Source: Candidatus Iainarchaeum sp.
GTDB taxonomy: Archaea > Iainarchaeota > Iainarchaeia > Iainarchaeales > JAFCCW01
NCBI GenBank assembly: GCA_017609985.1
Contig: JAFCCW010000013.1
Coordinates: 36,429 to 100,428 of the forward strand
Direction: 5' to 3'
DNA: 64,000 nucleotides
Part shown: one piece after another, positions 31,618-62,805 of the stretch
Numbering within the stretch: the first letter of the stretch is position 1
Layout of the letters: each line of letters begins with the position of its first letter
Program-made: the position numbers and the translations under genes
Notes under the pieces: generated by a model
Databases searched by the model: none
What the model saw: only the letters and a program-made list of their open reading frames with translations
Told to the model about the DNA's origin: nothing

Positions 31618-31740
31618 TTTGTGATTTAAAAAAAATTGCCTGTTGCTCTTTTCAAATCAATTGTTTTTGGTTTTCAAGGTTTTTTTTTTCGTTCCAAAGC
31701 AATCTATTTAAACCCTGCTTCTGTTATATTAAAGATTCAA

Positions 31741-34038
31741 ATGGAGATTCATCTGAACCAGTATCTTGCTGTTTTAATTTTTATTCTTTTTTTTTCAGCT
31801 TCAGCTTTTTCTGTTCTTGAACAGGATTCAATGAAGGTTTTTGCAGTTACAACAAAGGGGAATGCAATGTCTGCTGATCTCTCTCTTGAACTTGTGGACG
31901 GGACAGGCAGGGTTTTTACAACTGTTGATCCTCTGGTTGGGACATCCACTCAGACAACCCAGCGCATTGCAGTAGATGTTGCAAAAAAATATTATCCTGT
32001 TGCAGCTAGCTATGACTACAAGTTCAGCATCCAAAGCACTGCTTCTCTTGTGGACGGCCCTTCTGCGGGTGGAGCAATGGGTTTGCTTGTTGTTTCAATG
32101 CTTGATGGAAGAGGTGTTCCGGAAAATGTTTCAATGACTGGAACAATTAACTCTGATGGTTCTATTGGAAGTGTTGCAGGAATTTTTGAAAAAACAAAAG
32201 AAGCAGCAAACCAAGGCATAGAACTTTTTATGATTCCATTCGGGGAAGCAAAGCAAACAGTAAAACTGTCCACCGGGATTGAGTCAATTGATCTTGTTGA
32301 ATATGCTTCGCGAGAATGGGGAATGAAGGTTGTTGAAGTCAATAACATAGATGATGTTTTAGAATATGCTTTTTCTGATATTGCATCGATTGATGTGAAC
32401 AGGCAGGAACCAATAATTCCTGATTTTGTTCCTTCTCCAATTTCTTTTTCAAAGTCTCTTAAACCTATGAAATTGCTCACTTTAAAATATGTTGAAGAAG
32501 CTCGTGCTTCCATTGATTCAGCTCACCAAAGTTTGCAGGGAACAATGCTTGACGAACACTCTGTTGTGGATTTAATGCTTGCATCGCTTGATGAGTCAGA
32601 AAAATTGTTAAAGAAAGCTGAAATTCTTTACGATACAAATCATCTTTATTCTGCTGCAAACTATGCGTTTCTTTCAAAAGTTTATTCAAGTCTTGTTATT
32701 GATATTTCTGACAACCCGTCTTTGATTTCCGTTGATTCAACAATTTTTGATTTAAAAGTAAATTCTCTTGCAAATGAAATAAATAGGCTCGAGCAGGAGC
32801 TTGAGCAATCCATTCCTGTCAACTGCATTGAATGGCATGCTTCAGCAAAACAAAGACTAAACTATGCTGATGTAACTGTTGCAGAACTCAGGTCAATAAG
32901 AACAATTATTGGGGCACAAGAAATAGAGCAGGCAGTTTCTGGTGTTCTAGACTATGAATATGCAGTAGCGTGGGTTCAGATTGCAGAGGACCTCTACAGT
33001 ATTACTCGGGAAGAACAATGTTCGCTTAGCACAGTGCATGATACTTCTTTTGCAAAAGAGCTTGCTGAAAAAGAGCTTGTTTCTCTTGAAAACCTAATTG
33101 AGATAAGCGAAGTTGATGAAGAAAGCGATATAATGAGACGTTTTCTTTCAGCAAAAGTTGCCCAGTCGAAAGGCTGGTTTATGGCTGCAGCTTTTGATGC
33201 TGTTTCTGCAAAAGCATTAATTGAAGCGGAAAGCAGTTATCTTGACAAAGACTATGTTTCTCTTGAACAAGAGCTAAGAAACGGAATTCAAAAAACTGAT
33301 TCAGAGATTGTTTCTTTTGATTCGGATTCTGTCTGGGCTTCACTCTATTTGGACCATGCTCGCTATTACTATGACTCGGCTCTCTTTTACAATGGCCATG
33401 GCCGTTTGTCTCTTGCACTTGACAATTTAAGGAGCGGAATGAGTCTGCTTTCTCTCGCGATTAATGTGAATTCTGTTTCGTCCAGTTTCAAGGAAACTAT
33501 TTCAAAAATCCCTGAAGAAGAACTTTTTGTCAGTTCCCCTGTTTCAGAACCATTTCGTGGAGAAGGAGACCAAGAAACTTCTGAAGAAATTAAATTTCTT
33601 ATAGGAATAATTGCAGTTCTTTTAGTTGTTCTTGCAATAACTATTTTAAAAGTGTTTAGCATTCCAAATCATCCTTCCAGAATTCAGCAGATCAGGTCTG
33701 TGAAAAAGCTTCAGAATGATTTAGAGGAAGCTTTTGCAAAAAAAAGAATTTCTGAAGAAAAATATCACGAGTTATACAATAAGTATTTCCATATTCTTAG
33801 TCGGCTGGAAAAAGAAGCATCTAAAAAAAGCATAAAAGTTTTGGAGCTAGATGCATTGAATGCAGAACTTTCCTCATCTCAACAGCTCTTAAGAGACCTT
33901 AAGAGAAGATACAATGAGGGAACTATCACAAAAGAGGACTATGAAAAAAGACTCTCTGCTTACACTCTTCTTGTTGAAAAAGTAAAGCACAGAATAGAGC
34001 TTGACAAAAAGCAAATAGAAAAAATTGACAGCAAGTAA
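31741..34038 (+). CDS. Membrane-anchored Lon-like (S16) serine protease without ATPase domain
   Basis: Signal peptide; VDGPSAG catalytic Ser, MTGTINSDG, GIFEK Lys; TM helix then cytoplasmic coiled/SHOCT-like tail. Confidence 0.82.
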   Translation: MEIHLNQYLAVLIFILFFSASAFSVLEQDSMKVFAVTTKGNAMSADLSLELVDGTGRVFTTVDPLVGTSTQTTQRIAVDVAKKYYPVAASYDYKFSIQSTASLVDGPSAGGAMGLLVVSMLDGRGVPENVSMTGTINSDGSIGSVAGIFEKTKEAANQGIELFMIPFGEAKQTVKLSTGIESIDLVEYASREWGMKVVEVNNIDDVLEYAFSDIASIDVNRQEPIIPDFVPSPISFSKSLKPMKLLTLKYVEEARASIDSAHQSLQGTMLDEHSVVDLMLASLDESEKLLKKAEILYDTNHLYSAANYAFLSKVYSSLVIDISDNPSLISVDSTIFDLKVNSLANEINRLEQELEQSIPVNCIEWHASAKQRLNYADVTVAELRSIRTIIGAQEIEQAVSGVLDYEYAVAWVQIAEDLYSITREEQCSLSTVHDTSFAKELAEKELVSLENLIEISEVDEESDIMRRFLSAKVAQSKGWFMAAAFDAVSAKALIEAESSYLDKDYVSLEQELRNGIQKTDSEIVSFDSDSVWASLYLDHARYYYDSALFYNGHGRLSLALDNLRSGMSLLSLAINVNSVSSSFKETISKIPEEELFVSSPVSEPFRGEGDQETSEEIKFLIGIIAVLLVVLAITILKVFSIPNHPSRIQQIRSVKKLQNDLEEAFAKKRISEEKYHELYNKYFHILSRLEKEASKKSIKVLELDALNAELSSSQQLLRDLKRRYNEGTITKEDYEKRLSAYTLLVEKVKHRIELDKKQIEKIDSK

Positions 34039-34104: not shown

Positions 34105-37089
34105 TTAATTCGACTCTGTTTTTTCAAGCAAACTTTCTTTCAGTTTCAATCCAATTACTGAACTCTTTTCTTTGTTGAGCGCTACTCCAATTATCTGGTC
34201 AGCAGAATTAATCAAGTGGTCGTTGTGAGTTATTGCAATAAACTGGGAATCGGAAGACACTTTTTCAATTATTTCAATCATTTTTCTGCTGTTCTCTGCG
34301 TCAAGTGCAGCGTCTGCCTCGTCAAAGACATAGAATGGCGCAGGGTCATACAACTGTATCGCGAAAAGAAATGAGAGAGCAGTAAGGCTTTTTTCTCCGC
34401 CGCTCATGGAGTCAATATTTTGCAGGCTTTCCTTGTGTTTTGCTTGGATTATCAGGCCTGAGTCAAGAGGATTTTCTTCATCGCTTAATGAAAGCTGTCC
34501 AGAACCCTTGAAGAGTGACATAAACAAATCACTGAAATTTTTGTTGATTTCATTAAAGCAGTCAATGAAAACAGTTGTTCTTTTGACATCAATTTTTTCA
34601 ATCATATCAATAACAGCAGTTCTTTCTTCTTCAAGCTTTTTAACTTTTTCTTTAACATCATCTACTTCTTTTTTAAGGTCTGAAAAGCTTTCAACTGCCT
34701 TCATGTTGACTGCTCCAATTTCCTCAATTCTTTTTTCAATTTTTGGAATTCTCTCCCTTAGTTCTCCGACAGAGTATTCTTCAAGTATTTTTTCGCCGAC
34801 AAATTCTTTTGCTTCTTCTCCCAAGTCATCAATTCTGACCTGGTTTTTTCCAAGTTCAATGTTAATCTCGTTTTCTCTCTGGTCTGTTTTATGAATTTTC
34901 TCGCTCACAGACCCTATTTTTTGCTGAAGAGTCTCAATTGATGTCTCAAGTTCTTTCTTTCTTTCCACAAGCTTTTTGCCCTCGCTTTCCTGCTGTTCTT
35001 GTTTTTTTTCAAGACTGGTTATTTCTTCGACAAGACTTTTTTCCCGATTCTCCATTTCAGTTGTTTCTGATTCAATTTCTTTTGACTCTTCTTTAATGGA
35101 CTTTATTTCCGAGACATTTCTTTTTCTCTCAGCTGAAATTCTTGTTTCTCCTGAAATTTCCGAGTTCTTGAATTCTTGTTCGAGCAGTGCTTTTTCTTCC
35201 CTTAACTCTGAGAGCTCTGAATTAATTTTTTCAATGGAATCAAAACCAAGTTCTTCTCTTAGTTGTCTAGCGTTTGAAAAAAGTGTTTCTCTTTCACTCT
35301 TTAGCTCTGATATTTTTTCTTCCACTCTTTTTACTTCTATGGCTAAATTATCAAGTTCTTCGCTTTCCTGTTCGCCTTTAATTTTTTCAGCTTCGGATTC
35401 AAGTTCAGCAATTGACTCTCTGGTTTCCTTCAATGGTTCAATCTCAATTTCTAATCTTCTTTTTTCTTCAAGCATTTTTTTAAGGCTAGAGTGTGCTTCT
35501 TCAAGACTATTAAGCTCTTGTCTGGTGCTTTCAAGTTCTGTTTCTCTTTTTGTAATGTCTTCTTGTTTTTTGGCGAGCAGGCTTTCTTTTCTTTTTTGCT
35601 CAAGCTTGCTTTCACAAACAGGGCATTCTGCAACAGCCTTCTCCAGTTCTGCTTCTGCTTTTTTCATTGAAGCTATTTCTGCTTCAATATTTTTCAAATC
35701 AGACATTTTTTCCCCTGATTTTTCTTCAGATTCTAATATTTCTGTTTCAATTGAAGAGTGCTCTTTAATTATTTTTGTGAATCTGGCTTCTTTTTCTGAA
35801 AGAGTTTCTTCTCTGACTCTAAGCTTTCCAAGCTTTGCAGAAATCTGAACAAGCCTGTTTTTTCCTGTCTCAATTTTCTGATAAATAGTTGATATCTTTG
35901 CCTTATTTTCTAAAAGTTCTGATGAAAGCTTGGAAATTTTTGAATCAGCTTTTTCAGCATCTGCTCTCATGCTAGTTTCTTTGGCGAGAAGACCTGAATC
36001 CTTTTTCACAAGCTCGCTTTTCTTTTCAGCAAGCTCTTTTGTTTTCAGGTCAATTTCGGGAATTCTCTTCTCAATTTCATCTCTTCTTTCTGAGAGAGCC
36101 TGAATTTCTTCTTCGAGATTTTGGTTTCTCTGATTTAACAGTCTTAATCTTGAACTGTTTTTTGCAAGCAATTCCTGTTTTGCTCTTTTTTTTTCTTCAA
36201 GAACATTCTTTTCTGTTCTAGCTTGTTCAAGTTTTGTTCCGACTTCTTCGTACAATGATTGTCCTGAAGAAATTATCTCGGAATCAATTGCCTGCATTTT
36301 ACTTTTTTTCTCGCCTATTTTTCCCGAAATTTCTGAAATTCTTTTCTTAAGTTCATCTCTTCTTGAACCAAGTTCTTCAAGCTTTTTTTCAGACTCGTCA
36401 TTTTCTTTTCTTATTCTGCGGATTTCTTTTTCAAGAAGAGTTGCTTTGAATTCTCTTTTTTGCTTTTTAAGATTGTCATACTCCATTGCAGCATTCTTTT
36501 CCTTCTCAAGCTCTGAAAGATATGTTTCTCTTTCTGAGAGAACGATGTTTGCTTCCCTTGTTTTCTGTTCAACCTTTGAAAGTTCTTTGAGTGCTTCAGC
36601 TTTTTTTTCGTCAAACTCGCGTAATCCTGCAATCTCATCAATTACTTCTCTTCTTTGAACAGGATTCATTTCAATAACTCTGGTAATATCCCCTTGCACT
36701 ACTATGTTGTGGCCGTGCGGTTTTATTCCTAATTCTGTGAGAAGAGCAGACACTTCATTAAGTGTCTTCTTTGTTCCGTTCAGTCTGAACTGGCTTCTTC
36801 CCTGTTTGTCAATTGTCCTGCTTATCTCAAACTTGTTCTGCTTGTTTTTGAGATGCAATGCAACCTTTGCATAGTTTTCAACGCTCTTGCTGTTAACAAG
36901 GTCAGTTAGCTTTGAAGCTCTCAGCATTTTCAGGGAAGTAGCTCCCATGACAAACATTAGTGCGTCAAGGATATTGCTCTTTCCAGAACCATTGCTTCCT
37001 GCAATAACTGTGAATCCGTTTGAGAGTGGAATTTCTGCTTTGCGGAAGCTCTTGAAGTTTTTTATCTCAAGCTTCTTCAAGTCAACCAT
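34105..37089 (-). CDS. smc: SMC-family ATPase with canonical SMC heads and central CPVC zinc-hook instead of hinge
   Basis: GSNGSGKSN, VQGD Q-loop, GAVNMKA, MSGGEKS, PAPFYVFDEADAALD, ITH; CPVC at aa 489-492 of 994. Confidence 0.85.
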   Translation of the reverse strand: MVDLKKLEIKNFKSFRKAEIPLSNGFTVIAGSNGSGKSNILDALMFVMGATSLKMLRASKLTDLVNSKSVENYAKVALHLKNKQNKFEISRTIDKQGRSQFRLNGTKKTLNEVSALLTELGIKPHGHNIVVQGDITRVIEMNPVQRREVIDEIAGLREFDEKKAEALKELSKVEQKTREANIVLSERETYLSELEKEKNAAMEYDNLKKQKREFKATLLEKEIRRIRKENDESEKKLEELGSRRDELKKRISEISGKIGEKKSKMQAIDSEIISSGQSLYEEVGTKLEQARTEKNVLEEKKRAKQELLAKNSSRLRLLNQRNQNLEEEIQALSERRDEIEKRIPEIDLKTKELAEKKSELVKKDSGLLAKETSMRADAEKADSKISKLSSELLENKAKISTIYQKIETGKNRLVQISAKLGKLRVREETLSEKEARFTKIIKEHSSIETEILESEEKSGEKMSDLKNIEAEIASMKKAEAELEKAVAECPVCESKLEQKRKESLLAKKQEDITKRETELESTRQELNSLEEAHSSLKKMLEEKRRLEIEIEPLKETRESIAELESEAEKIKGEQESEELDNLAIEVKRVEEKISELKSERETLFSNARQLREELGFDSIEKINSELSELREEKALLEQEFKNSEISGETRISAERKRNVSEIKSIKEESKEIESETTEMENREKSLVEEITSLEKKQEQQESEGKKLVERKKELETSIETLQQKIGSVSEKIHKTDQRENEINIELGKNQVRIDDLGEEAKEFVGEKILEEYSVGELRERIPKIEKRIEEIGAVNMKAVESFSDLKKEVDDVKEKVKKLEEERTAVIDMIEKIDVKRTTVFIDCFNEINKNFSDLFMSLFKGSGQLSLSDEENPLDSGLIIQAKHKESLQNIDSMSGGEKSLTALSFLFAIQLYDPAPFYVFDEADAALDAENSRKMIEIIEKVSSDSQFIAITHNDHLINSADQIIGVALNKEKSSVIGLKLKESLLEKTESN

Positions 37090-59706: not shown

Positions 59707-62700
59707 TCAGGAACCTAGTTCTTCGCCAGTAATTGCATTAATATATTTTCTTCTTTCAATGCCGTCTTTTCTCTTAAGAATTGCTTCATAGATTGGCATG
59801 TAAACAGTTGAAATACTTTTAACAGAAACATTTTTCCAGAGCTTTTTCAGCATCTTAGGAATATCTTTTTCGCTGACTTTTTCAATCTCAATATTCAAGG
59901 CTTCCTGTTCAGAAACTGGCAGAGAATTCATTGAAGAAAGCATTGGGTGAAGAGGGTTAACAGGCAAATCCATGTTTCCCTTCAGGCAATAAATATACTG
60001 ATTTTTTTCTCGGATTCTCTCAACAATTTCCTTTTGTGCAAGAGCGTCAAGAACCTTTACTGCCTTCATTTCTTCAAGCCCTGTTTCCGCAGTGATTTCG
60101 TTTAGAGTTTTTTTCTGAGCAGACAGCGCGTGAATTATATCAATATCACTTGAGTTAAGTTCTTTAAGTTTTGAAAGTCCACTGCTTTCAATAATTTTTT
60201 CCTTAAAGTGAACAAATTCTCCTGAAACTGCATTGATGAACGCAGAGCCTTCTCTAAAAGTATTTTTTGCACTAAAAATATGATATTTTACTTTGTAAAC
60301 AGGAGCATACTTCAGGAAAATATCATCAATTATTTCATCTTCCCCAAACAATCCAAGAAGTTTCTTTTTTCTCATCTTGCTGAAAATTTTTCTTGCACTC
60401 TCAAGAGAAACTCGTTCAGGAAATGTATGCAAAGCTGTACCCTCTGCAATCTCAAGTTGTGTCTCTGTTTTTGCAGTTGCTTTTTCTTCTTCAAATTCCC
60501 TTTCGCTTTCCTCCGCAAGCTCTTCAGCAATTGTTTCCTCGCTTTCAATTCCTGGAATCGCAATCGTTCCAGTTTTGTTGTTAAGCACTGCTCCTTTTTT
60601 CACAAGGCTTTGAACAACTTCTTTTGTGCTGACACTTACCTTGTATTTTGCATTAAGTGTTCTGATTGTTGCCTCAACTTTTTCAGCATCAAGCGAACCA
60701 GCTCTTTCAAGACTTGCAAAAACCATTCCGATTGCCAGAGTCTTAACCTGTTCCGGGTTAAGGTCTCTCTGCAGTTCAGTTGTCACTGCTTCTCTTCCCT
60801 CGTGTTGGCTCATTCTTGGCCTGATGTTCATAATGAATGCTCTGCTTGTTTCCTCTCTTCGGTCACCAGTCAATGCAGTTCCAACTGGAAGTGTCTTGAT
60901 AAAAGATGCAGCCTTGTAACTGTGCGGAACAATTGTTGGAGTTCTCTTGAAAACAGCTTTTACATCGTCATCAAAAACAAGCTTGTGAGACATGATTATG
61001 TCAAGCTGGCTTAACACTTTTGAATCAATTGCGGAAGGCTGCTGTGTTGCAAAAACAAGAGAACAGCCTGGCTGTCTTCCCTGCTTTACATACTCTACTA
61101 GCGCATTTGAAGCAGGAGTTTTAGTGTTTCCGCCAGGAATAAGAGTGTGAGCCTCATCAATAAAAAGCCAGGTTGGCGGAATTTCAACCTCTAGCATTTC
61201 ATCAAGGTCAACTTCCTTGAATCTCTGAGTTGCCTCTCGTCTGGTTGACTTTTTTCTTGCAGCAAGAATTCTCCTTGCAAGAATCCCGATGACCAAAGCA
61301 GAAACATTGTCGTCAAGAAAAGAAGTGTCAATAATTGAAAGTTGCCCCTCTCTTGAAACCTCTCCCAACGGAGTTCCCCTTGAAGAAAAAATTCCCCAGC
61401 TCTTTGCAGCATCAAATCTGCTGACCAAAGCACGAATCGAATCAGGCTTGTAACCTCTATCGCTTGAATTAAGTTCCGAGTCATGCTCAAGACATTGAAT
61501 AACATCTTCAAGACCATATTTGCCTGCTTTTCCTTTTACAAATTTTTCATCCTTTGTCTTGTAACCATCCCTTGTTTTCACAAGACCTTTTTCAAGCAAC
61601 AAACCACTTGGAGAAAATCTTTCAATTCCAAAAGTCAGACACCAGTCATCTGCTGTTAGCAATGCTGGCGGAATCGCAAAAGTATTGTCATAAGTTTCCT
61701 TTGGAACCTCTCCCTTCAATCCCTCTGGAATAAACACAGTTATATTCTCAAGCCCCTCTGGTTCAAGACCCCACTTGCCTAAAATTTCCAGTTCCCTCTC
61801 TTCCTTGTTTGGAAAACGCATACTCCAGAAAACACCAATCGGGTCAATCACAAGAATTCCAACATTCTTGTTCTTTTTTGCAAGCTCTTCAGCAATAACT
61901 CCAAGGACGTAACTCTTTCCCGAACCACGGGCACCGCAAACAAAAACAACGTGTGGATTTAATGCATCAAGAAAAACATCAGATTCATTGAATGCATCCT
62001 CACTCACTCTGCCGACATGAAGCGCGGCATCATAACCATATTTTTTGAAAACAGTTGACTTTCTTCCAATGAACACATTGTTCTGGTCGTTAAGAAAAGA
62101 AAGTTCTGGTTTAATGATTGGTTTATTTATCTTTAGCGCTGCTGCCTTTGAAGCAAGCTCTTTAACACCCTCTTCCCTCACACCCACCTCAACCTCTTCG
62201 TCAAAGGGCTCTAATCGCTCCACAGATGCCTTTGCTGCCTTGTCAAGAATTATGTCTTTAATCATTTGCTTTTTTAACTCGTTTTCCCTTGGAAGCTTTT
62301 TGCCTGATTTATTTGCTCTGTCTTTTTTTTCAGAAAGATTTTTTCCTTTTTCTTTGTCTTCGTTCAAATCAACTTCTTCTTCATCCTCTTCTTCAAGTTC
62401 ACTCTCTTCCTCTAAATCATCTTCGTCTTCATCCAAGTTTTCTTCGTCATCTTCTTCAAGTTCTTCAACATCAGTTTCTTCCTTCAAATCAGTTTCCTGA
62501 CTCTCAGATTCTTTCTCAGCAATAGTTGCTTCCAGTGAAGCTTTTTCTTCATCTGCTTTTCGCTTAGCTTCCTCTTTTTCCATCTGATTTTTCAGCTCCG
62601 CAGCTTTTTCCTTCAGTCTCTTTTTTGCAAGTTTTTCCTCTTCATCCTCTTCAAACGTGTCTCCAAACAGTTCATCCTCACTGTCATCAATGCCATGTTC

Positions 62701-62805
62701 AACCCTGTTTCCGAGAGACCTTGCCTTTAGGGGCTCTTCTGAGTCCAAAACAGGCTCTTTTGCTTCATTTTCCACAGAGCTAACGCTCTTTTTCTCTTCA
62801 GCCAT
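59707..62805 (-). CDS. HerA/FtsK-like (DUF87) ATPase with acidic N-terminus and C-terminal winged-helix-like region
   Basis: GARGSGKS, VIDP, LFIDEAH, GRQPG, ATQQP. Confidence 0.85.
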   Translation of the reverse strand: MAEEKKSVSSVENEAKEPVLDSEEPLKARSLGNRVEHGIDDSEDELFGDTFEEDEEEKLAKKRLKEKAAELKNQMEKEEAKRKADEEKASLEATIAEKESESQETDLKEETDVEELEEDDEENLDEDEDDLEEESELEEEDEEEVDLNEDKEKGKNLSEKKDRANKSGKKLPRENELKKQMIKDIILDKAAKASVERLEPFDEEVEVGVREEGVKELASKAAALKINKPIIKPELSFLNDQNNVFIGRKSTVFKKYGYDAALHVGRVSEDAFNESDVFLDALNPHVVFVCGARGSGKSYVLGVIAEELAKKNKNVGILVIDPIGVFWSMRFPNKEERELEILGKWGLEPEGLENITVFIPEGLKGEVPKETYDNTFAIPPALLTADDWCLTFGIERFSPSGLLLEKGLVKTRDGYKTKDEKFVKGKAGKYGLEDVIQCLEHDSELNSSDRGYKPDSIRALVSRFDAAKSWGIFSSRGTPLGEVSREGQLSIIDTSFLDDNVSALVIGILARRILAARKKSTRREATQRFKEVDLDEMLEVEIPPTWLFIDEAHTLIPGGNTKTPASNALVEYVKQGRQPGCSLVFATQQPSAIDSKVLSQLDIIMSHKLVFDDDVKAVFKRTPTIVPHSYKAASFIKTLPVGTALTGDRREETSRAFIMNIRPRMSQHEGREAVTTELQRDLNPEQVKTLAIGMVFASLERAGSLDAEKVEATIRTLNAKYKVSVSTKEVVQSLVKKGAVLNNKTGTIAIPGIESEETIAEELAEESEREFEEEKATAKTETQLEIAEGTALHTFPERVSLESARKIFSKMRKKKLLGLFGEDEIIDDIFLKYAPVYKVKYHIFSAKNTFREGSAFINAVSGEFVHFKEKIIESSGLSKLKELNSSDIDIIHALSAQKKTLNEITAETGLEEMKAVKVLDALAQKEIVERIREKNQYIYCLKGNMDLPVNPLHPMLSSMNSLPVSEQEALNIEIEKVSEKDIPKMLKKLWKNVSVKSISTVYMPIYEAILKRKDGIERRKYINAITGEELGS

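Follow-up and report, generated by a model that had tools for sequence, protein, structure and literature searches.

A 2023 review defines SMC proteins by a hinge and Rad50 by a hook (PMC10586767). Exchange of the two has been engineered in both directions. A Bacillus subtilis Smc whose hinge was exchanged for the Rad50 hook of Pyrococcus furiosus gave normal growth on rich medium, and function of the chimera was still dependent on arm length (PMC5344682), while yeast Rad50 with the MukB hinge replacing its hook works in repair (PMC6969161). Among natural proteins, ASRP (ClsN, Sph1/2) are archaeal members of the SMC superfamily with a zinc-hook motif (Yoshinaga et al. 2022, PMC9389158), and 'hinge-less' SMCs, without CXXC according to the authors, were described in marine Actinomycetes (Sussfeld et al. 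2025, PMC12153180). The role of the hinge beyond joining the arms, whether in DNA binding, as an entry gate or in communication with the heads, is debated. The smc gene examined here occupies positions 34105-37089 (minus strand) of a 64,000-nucleotide stretch (the window) of contig JAFCCW010000013.1 from Candidatus Iainarchaeum sp. Its product appears to be the source archaeon's sole SMC protein, with the ~160-residue hinge replaced by a hook, and it is very probably the Smc-ScpAB condensin ATPase of the cell, predicted to dimerise by this Rad50-type zinc hook.

The protein resembles the prokaryotic and archaeal Smc of Smc-ScpAB (TIGR02169; structures 5xei, 5xns and 4i99) in its head motifs, its arms of ~300 residues and its joint- and elbow-like breaks; its genome encodes ScpA and ScpB, and its heads fall among Smc in phylogeny. 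Canonical Smc differs in having a hinge at the apex, where the query has a CPxC hook and a TIGR02169 score of 569.8 against 729.4. The query and Rad50/SbcC (PF04423) both have an antiparallel coiled coil tipped by CPxC and, counted from the second cysteine, conserved Leu +4, Lys +9 and Leu +12 (profile comparison 73.0), but heads and arm length are of SMC type, as are the predicted partners, and the classic Rad50 hook CPxCG has glycine after the second cysteine where SMC hooks are acidic. ASRP carry a zinc-hook motif, as does the query, but their profile (NF045487) covers 593 positions against 994 residues, and the query heads are canonical SMC. The SMCs of marine Actinomycetes have lost the hinge as the query has, but are bacterial and, as described, resemble the hookless variants found in the order of the source genome and not the query. 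In Lamassu LmuB the Walker B glutamate is a glutamine (PMC10586767), whereas the query keeps E924. The same design of SMC heads and arms with a Rad50-type hook is that of engineered Smc(Zh) (Burmann et al. 2017, PMC5344682), which is laboratory-made, whereas the query is natural, order-wide and found beside the cell's own hook-bearing Rad50. The initial annotation of this locus had allowed that the architecture might already be described for the lineage; no natural SMC with a zinc hook was described in the literature searched (supplementary files aside), only engineered hinge/hook chimeras. The evidence supports as new a natural canonical Smc-ScpAB SMC with a Rad50-type hook module, known before in print as an engineered protein.

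Heads and arms of the hinge-less SMC protein

Features of the gene and its product are given below.

34105..37089, minus strand: smc gene, 994 codons plus stop, ATG start; hinge-less, hook-bearing SMC (open reading frame list, SMC_N 147 bits, TIGR02169 569.8 bits)
36580..37089, minus strand: ATPase head, N-terminal half, residues 1-170, with Walker A at residues 31-38 (36976-36999), R57 and Q-loop Q132
35626..36579, minus strand: N-terminal arm strand, residues 171-488 (318 residues), from the helical model and sequence composition
35509..35730, minus strand: Rad50-type hook module, residues 454-527 (74 residues), CPVC with ~35 flanking residues on each side
35614..35625, minus strand: CPVC, residues 489-492, presumed zinc ligands at the arm tip, from the invariance of C489, P490 and C492
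34717..35613, minus strand: C-terminal arm strand, residues 493-791 (299 residues), from the helical model and sequence composition
34108..34716, minus strand: ATPase head, C-terminal half, residues 792-994, from sequence motifs
34390-34404, minus strand: signature motif S896-K900 of the C-terminal head half
34318-34335, minus strand: Walker B with catalytic E924, residues 919-924, of the C-terminal head half
Minus strand, C-terminal head half: D-loop, residues 926-930, and H-loop H955

The initial annotation had described a hinge-less, hook-bearing SMC at 34105-37089, and this observation is confirmed. The 994-residue frame on the minus strand agrees with the open reading frame list and its translation, and the condensin-type head motifs were recovered (RREVIDEIAG at residues 146-155, GAVNMKA at 792-798, MSGGEKSL at 895-902 and PAPFYVFDE at 916-924). 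The CxxC reported near the midpoint is CPVC at residues 489-492 (35614-35625), at 0.49 of the chain length; the whole protein contains three cysteines only, at 489, 492 and 844. All ATPase motifs are present in the product (Walker A, Q-loop, signature, Walker B with the catalytic glutamate, D-loop and H-loop). In an alignment of 66 sequences G31, G36, K37, R57 and Q132 of the N-terminal head half, modelled as alpha/beta with a predicted local distance difference test score (pLDDT) of 85-94, are invariant, as are S896, G898, E899, D923, E924, D926, D930 and H955 of the C-terminal half.

The Pfam SMC_N match (147 bits) spans residues 4-975. Among NCBIfam profiles the archaeal-type SMC family TIGR02169 ranked first with 569.8 bits, followed by the best Rad50 family at 139.6, ASRP at 124.3 (NF045487, under its cut-off of 300) and arcadin-4 at 86.8. 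Sequence matches to solved structures were led by the Pyrococcus Smc heads 5xei, 5xns and 4i99 (333.5, 284.9 and 261.1 bits), against 68.8 bits for the best Rad50 head. A Foldseek search of the predicted structure against the PDB likewise returned SMC first (6yvu_B with E 2e-37, 5xei, 5xns_A with a target template modelling score of 0.81 and 4i99_A with 0.88), the first Rad50 complex being at rank 9. The PADLOC defence models gave partial matches, mad3 with 172 bits over the C-terminal part and LmuB with 93.6 bits.

For head phylogeny, 189 sequences were trimmed to their first 175 and last 215 residues and aligned; proteins longer than 1300 residues (inteins) or shorter than 760 residues and the N-terminally truncated P0152 and P0164 were dropped. 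Apex classes were assigned with a local hinge hidden Markov model (HMM) based on 14 Pfam-placed hinge segments, giving 106 hinge, 53 hook, 19 with neither and 11 Rad50. A FastTree phylogeny used 124 rows, with every third hinged metagenome protein kept, and an IQ-TREE phylogeny used a 72-row subset of 390 columns under LG+C20+F+G4 with posterior mean site frequencies, ASRP sequences not being among its rows. In the IQ-TREE head tree Rad50 was split from all SMC with support of 100/100, the branch to either side measuring 4.64 substitutions per column. The core clade that holds the query (97/91) has 30 rows, 22 of the hook class and 8 with neither, and is nested in a 38-row clade (98/88) corresponding to the order. 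The nearest row outside the order clade was a hinged SMC of the sister-order family f28 (86/83), and one hinged protein, P0148, was placed within it (89/77). By these comparisons the heads of the product are assigned to SMC, not Rad50. The possibility raised in the initial annotation that they would group with Rad50 was not borne out (100/100 in the tree; 569.8 vs 139.6 bits); of the phylogenetic comparison it proposed, the separation from Rad50 was obtained, and ASRP (ClsN/Sph) were compared by profile scores only.

No SMC_hinge (PF06470) was found in the protein by Pfam scan, or anywhere in the source genome in a Pfam search in which 10 of 14 control genomes were positive. An AlphaFold2 monomer run on the 66-sequence alignment (mean pLDDT 79.2) gave alpha/beta heads and helix elsewhere apart from short breaks. 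At the modelled apex, helix 447-484 leads into a 13-residue loop (485-497) with CPVC and on into helix 498-550, without a globular domain, in line with the earlier statement that no globular hinge lies between the heads; this loop is the sole non-helical stretch of the protein's centre. The N-terminal arm strand (E 18.6%, K 15.7%, P 0.3%) is broken in the model at 223-233, 362-368 and 444-446, and the C-terminal strand (E 25.8%, P 0.7%) at 551, 575-576, 613-615 and 760-773. Breaks 223-233 with 760-773, and 362-368 with 613-615, pair at equal distance from the tip and may represent joint-like and elbow-like discontinuities.

Arm lengths were taken between the L170 column and the apex for the N-terminal strand, and between the apex and the G792 column for the C-terminal one. 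Those of the query, 318 and 299 residues, are close to the medians of the 53 hook SMCs (316 and 298); the medians of the 106 hinged SMCs are 322 and 280, to which a hinge envelope of 158 is added, and Rad50 arms of the lineage are much shorter at 175 and 137 residues. Since the hook-SMC arms match hinged-SMC arms and 994 plus ~160 residues equals the canonical length, the hinge has been excised with arm length kept. A short-arm class comprises seven of the 53 hook SMCs, with arms of ~190-215 residues and total lengths of 772-831 residues (L042, L052, L055, L056, P0137, P0139 and P0149); there are few intermediates between it and the main class of ~300-315 residues.

Partners were found elsewhere in the source genome. 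ScpA (58.2 bits) and ScpB (105 bits), both over their Pfam cut-offs, are encoded ~2 kb apart on another contig. A separate 688-residue SMC_N protein is Rad50 by NCBIfam (196.8 bits for Rad50 vs 64.5 for SMC) and has a hook match of 37.1 bits; this Rad50 is short (arms of ~175 and 137 residues) and is encoded on contig C18 (L060:299-2365). A Mre11-like gene, whose best family is Mre11 with 88 bits, under cut-off, lies on a third contig, C29 (L092:1501-2742), away from rad50. The cell thus appears to have one hook SMC, its kleisin and ScpB, and a separate Rad50, and the genome-wide picture suggested by the initial annotation held: ScpA, ScpB and a distinct Rad50 were found and a hinged smc was not (assembly 86.6% complete).

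The arm apex and Rad50 hooks

The initial annotation had expected Pfam to miss the hinge and to detect a Rad50 hook. The first part held; for the second, Rad50_zn_hook (PF04423) aligns end to end over residues 468-518 but scores under its cut-off of 24.3 bits, a cut-off exceeded by the relative P0160 with 30.7 bits. Across 66 hook-bearing members C489, P490 and C492 are the sole invariant columns between L170 and G792. Together with the mid-chain CPxC found in 116 of 121 sequences (the query and its best 120 relatives), this argues that the mid-chain CPVC is not due to chance.

Comparison was extended to 35 residues on each side of CxxC, with 53 SMC hooks set against the hooks of 28 same-order Rad50 proteins (30 loci minus one without CxxC in range and one open reading frame of less than 600 residues). 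By hhalign the two profiles scored 73.0 against each other (E 2.6e-16, probability 98.7). With the CPxC columns masked the score was still 39.9 (E 1.4e-8) in the same register, and single flanks gave 19.2 (N-terminal) and 22.7 (C-terminal), while eight arm control windows, shifted by 80 or 120 residues along either protein, gave at most 12.3. The in-order Rad50-hook HMM matched 53 of 53 SMC hooks with a median of 35.8 bits (range 26.1-48.2), against a median of 35.65 bits (range 22.6-44.2) for 10 sister-order Rad50 hooks. The apex is therefore as Rad50-hook-like as a real Rad50 hook of a neighbouring order. SMC and Rad50 hooks have in common CPxC, a small residue two positions ahead of its first cysteine, Leu at +4, Lys/Arg at +9 and Leu at +12. 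Conversely, with an HMM of the 74-residue SMC hook module the query scored 71 bits and the source genome's own Rad50 hook 44.5 bits.

Copying of the hook from Rad50 and convergence on it are both compatible with these sequences. No donor stands out among the Rad50 hooks scored with the SMC-hook HMM. Rad50 of family f6 was considered as a donor and set aside, its 31-44 bits being in the same range as those of other Rad50 hooks.

The residue following the second hook cysteine differs between the two proteins. Of the 53 SMC hooks 46 have an acidic residue there, as do 74 of the 76 named-genome loci, and it is Lys/Arg in the Rad50 of 21 of 25 genomes from families with a hook SMC. A basic residue occurs there in Rad50 of only 3/19 genomes from in-order families without an SMC hook (f6: 0/11), and ten sister-order Rad50s, found beside hinged SMCs, have Gly (8) or Glu (2), a comparison that rests on few independent evolutionary contrasts.

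Apex variants across the order and its relatives

The genome sample comprised 151 genomes of the phylum: the source genome (G000), 139 others belonging to its order and 11 from sister orders within the class. None of the 140 same-order genomes, among them single-contig genomes 94-99% complete, gave a hinge match, vs 10 of 11 sister-order genomes. The query homologue (E <= 1e-30) was present in 144/151, SMC-type genes being single in each genome. The kleisin ScpA was detected in 145 genomes and ScpB in 139 of the 151, each in 55/55 genomes at least 90% complete, and Rad50 in 60/61 genomes of the class. The hook-module HMM matched 144/151 genomes, often twice per genome, in SMC and in Rad50. The hook lay within the SMC reading frame in at least 105 of 140 same-order genomes, a lower bound obtained by hand-checking 150 listed HMM matches against SMC places, with 71 further matches unlisted. 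Among the matches listed, only Rad50 matched the hook HMM in families f4, f6, f16, f22, f23 and f25 and in the sister orders. The hook SMC architecture is thus fixed across one DPANN order, with ScpA and ScpB kept wherever it is present, while sister orders keep the hinge, and the hinge-to-hook swap in a condensin-like SMC that the initial annotation proposed is supported and extends across the order, beyond the source genome.

Protein searches gave a similar distribution. Of the 7999 candidates scored in a word-index search, 4138 proteins had E <= 0.001. The 120 best relatives were 804-1025 residues long and, by precomputed domains, PF06470 was present in none and PF04423 in four; the five sequences without CPxC, among these relatives and the query, are 924-939 residues long. 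The arm region alone (residues 300-700) found one protein as a word-index query, since the arms are too low in complexity for this index. In a phmmer search against 1.8 billion representatives, ~40 clusters aligned with the query end to end in one stretch, and the next matches were hinged canonical SMCs of 1100-1200 residues aligning in two stretches. Among named public genomes mid-chain CxxC occurred in 77 of 78 loci (76 CPxC, one CLVC); Candidatus Iainarchaeum andersonii and archaeon GW2011_AR10, the latter a complete genome, are among the sources.

Two contigs filed under a Chloroflexota bacterium and a Candidatus Falkowbacteria bacterium (L126, L186) carry a hook SMC 43% identical to the query; they are probably of archaeal origin and were binned with bacterial genomes. 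Hinge-less SMC_N clusters reached through the homologue P0011 have the labels Nanobdellota, Spirochaetota and Minisyncoccota and are leads only. An intein of the LAGLIDADG homing endonuclease type at the P-loop is carried by several SMC genes of the lineage plus one hinged relative (P0132, P0151, L179 and L197, the last a 1541-residue reading frame of GW2011_AR10).

A further class consists of SMCs of ~905-950 residues with neither hinge nor CxxC, found in families f4, f22 and f25 and several metagenome clusters (loci L041, L053, L054 and L057; proteins P0103, P0104, P0115, P0117, P0118, P0124, P0125, P0129, P0133, P0138, P0140, P0141, P0144 and P0150). The model of P0125 (15-sequence alignment, pLDDT 74.6) has a short low-confidence helical tip only. 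Most of this class, the f4, f25 and related hookless forms among them, branch from within the hook-bearers in the IQ-TREE head tree, which points to a later loss of the hook in these families. In the SMCs of f6 and f23 (933-1084 residues; L058 from G006 of f6, P0225, and L051 and L059 of f23) the centre is longer and includes a short stretch unlike coiled coil. This stretch matched neither profile (hinge at most 19.6, hook at most 15.9) and may be a small apex domain of another kind or a hinge remnant. A remnant hinge in the SMCs without hinge or hook was considered and is rejected for now (hhalign at most 19.6 vs 286.7 for the hinged control).

The hook label required six changes on the head tree, three of them forced by well-supported branches. 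Placing hook-bearers and the forms nested among them in a single clade cost 6.08 log-likelihood units and was not rejected (approximately unbiased test, p = 0.283), the constraint group having been defined after the tree was seen. A broader scheme is offered with considerable reserve, being rather doubtful as a whole: the SMC arm apex would be exchangeable within the order, the hinge giving way to a hook derived from or modelled on that of Rad50 which several families later lost, and the charge following the cysteines would act as a code. If this were true, Smc-ScpAB could work without any apex domain dedicated to dimerisation, and the residue after the second cysteine (acidic in SMC, basic in Rad50, Gly in sister orders) may code which hooks can pair.

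Function and genomic setting

In the mechanism proposed, two chains would each give two cysteines to one zinc ion, and the shared zinc would keep the arm tips permanently linked, the task of the hinge in other SMCs. The arms would zip into a rod, with ScpA bridging the two heads and closing the ring, and ATP-driven head engagement would load and move the ring on DNA as in Smc-ScpAB. The scheme draws on the B. subtilis Smc-hook chimera and the yeast Rad50-MukB hinge experiments. On this reading the hinge fold itself would be dispensable for loading or translocation in these cells, as the B. subtilis chimera also suggested. Evolution has made the same swap as engineers and kept it order-wide with kleisin, ScpB and unchanged arm length. 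Closely related heads with hinge, hook or neither form a natural set that allows a direct test of what the apex does in loading and loop extrusion. The arrangement also raises the question of how one cell keeps two hook-bearing machines, SMC and Rad50, apart.

Several observations weigh against a zinc-hooked Smc-ScpAB ATPase. The score of 569.8 bits lies under the curated equivalog cut-off of TIGR02169 (729.4), a shortfall ascribed to the hinge part of the model having nothing to align to. The Rad50_zn_hook match, 17.2 bits (23.0 in a second search), is under 24.3, and by NCBIfam ScpA scores 59 against a cut-off of 234 and ScpB 88.9 against 89.2. The AlphaFold2 model is of a monomer, with a predicted template modelling score of 0.43. 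The source assembly is 86.6% complete, and a second, hinged SMC could lie in the missing part. SMCs without hinge and CxxC occur in f4, f6, f16, f22, f23 and f25, where ScpA/ScpB are mostly kept; the hook would therefore not be strictly required there, which weakens the case for it as an essential dimerisation site.

This last point leads to the alternative that the CPxC tip is conserved for a redox, disulphide or other metal site, the chains being held together by arm contacts, heads and ScpA. The retention of ScpA and ScpB by the families nested among hook-bearers without CxxC and hinge speaks for it, as does the short low-confidence helical tip of the P0125 model, but CPxC is invariant in 66 sequences, the two apex cysteines per chain mean that four-ligand coordination needs a second chain, and masking of the cysteines does not abolish the in-register match of the flanks to Rad50 hooks; we regard this alternative as improbable. 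It is somewhat less probable still that the hook joins separate SMC complexes or forms mixed zinc hooks with the cell's Rad50. The SMC-hook HMM does match the hook of Rad50 where both proteins occur in one genome (44.5 bits for that of the source genome), and the residue after the second cysteine is acidic in 46/53 SMC hooks vs basic in 21/25 Rad50 hooks of families with a hook SMC; this charge pattern, which offers few independent contrasts, could equally keep the two hooks apart, and the arms of SMC and Rad50 differ about two-fold in length.

Other readings concern the identity of the protein. That it is an accessory SMC-like paralogue, of defence, ASRP or other type, with the true hinged SMC missing from an incomplete assembly, would fit the completeness of 86.6% and the partial PADLOC matches (mad3 172 bits, LmuB 93.6 bits). 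It is very improbable given that a hinge was found in 0/140 same-order genomes, each SMC-bearing genome has one SMC-type gene, the SMC score is 570 bits vs 94 for LmuB and 124 for ASRP, and E924 is intact, unlike the glutamine reported for LmuB (PMC10586767). A long-armed Rad50 paralogue whose heads converged on SMC would account for the CxxC hook and for the alignment of the Rad50_zn_hook model over its whole length. The 100/100 split in the head tree with its branch of 4.64 on each side, the separate Rad50 in 60/61 genomes of the class and the reciprocal scores of the source Rad50 (196.8 for Rad50 vs 64.5 for SMC) leave it the least credible of the four, and it is already refuted as far as sequence can tell. 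A Smc-ScpAB ATPase with a Rad50-type zinc hook at its arm tips is the explanation retained.

The source assembly has 1.16 Mb in 37 contigs, with 86.6% completeness and 3.0% contamination. The window is archaeal in content, with genes for FtsZ, Spt5, L11/L1/L10, prefoldin and L37ae together with 5S rRNA. As the initial annotation had stated, neither scpA, scpB nor mre11 adjoins smc in the neighbourhood inspected; scpA, scpB and the mre11-like gene lie elsewhere in the genome. The smc gene is flanked by a convergent gene for an 800-residue Lon protease-domain protein and, upstream on the same strand, by diphthamide synthase. The convergent reading frame (31636-34038, plus strand) encodes a Lon protease C-terminal domain and a SHOCT motif. 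A 1032-residue reading frame at 59707-62805 (minus strand) has HerA/DUF87 ATPase domains and a weak TrmB-like C-terminal match. Two ribosomal protein frames exceed their matched domains, suggesting a possible extension or mis-set end in each: L11 (27864-28721, plus strand, 285 residues), in which matched domains are confined to residues 4-135, and L10 (29491-30555, plus strand, 354 residues).

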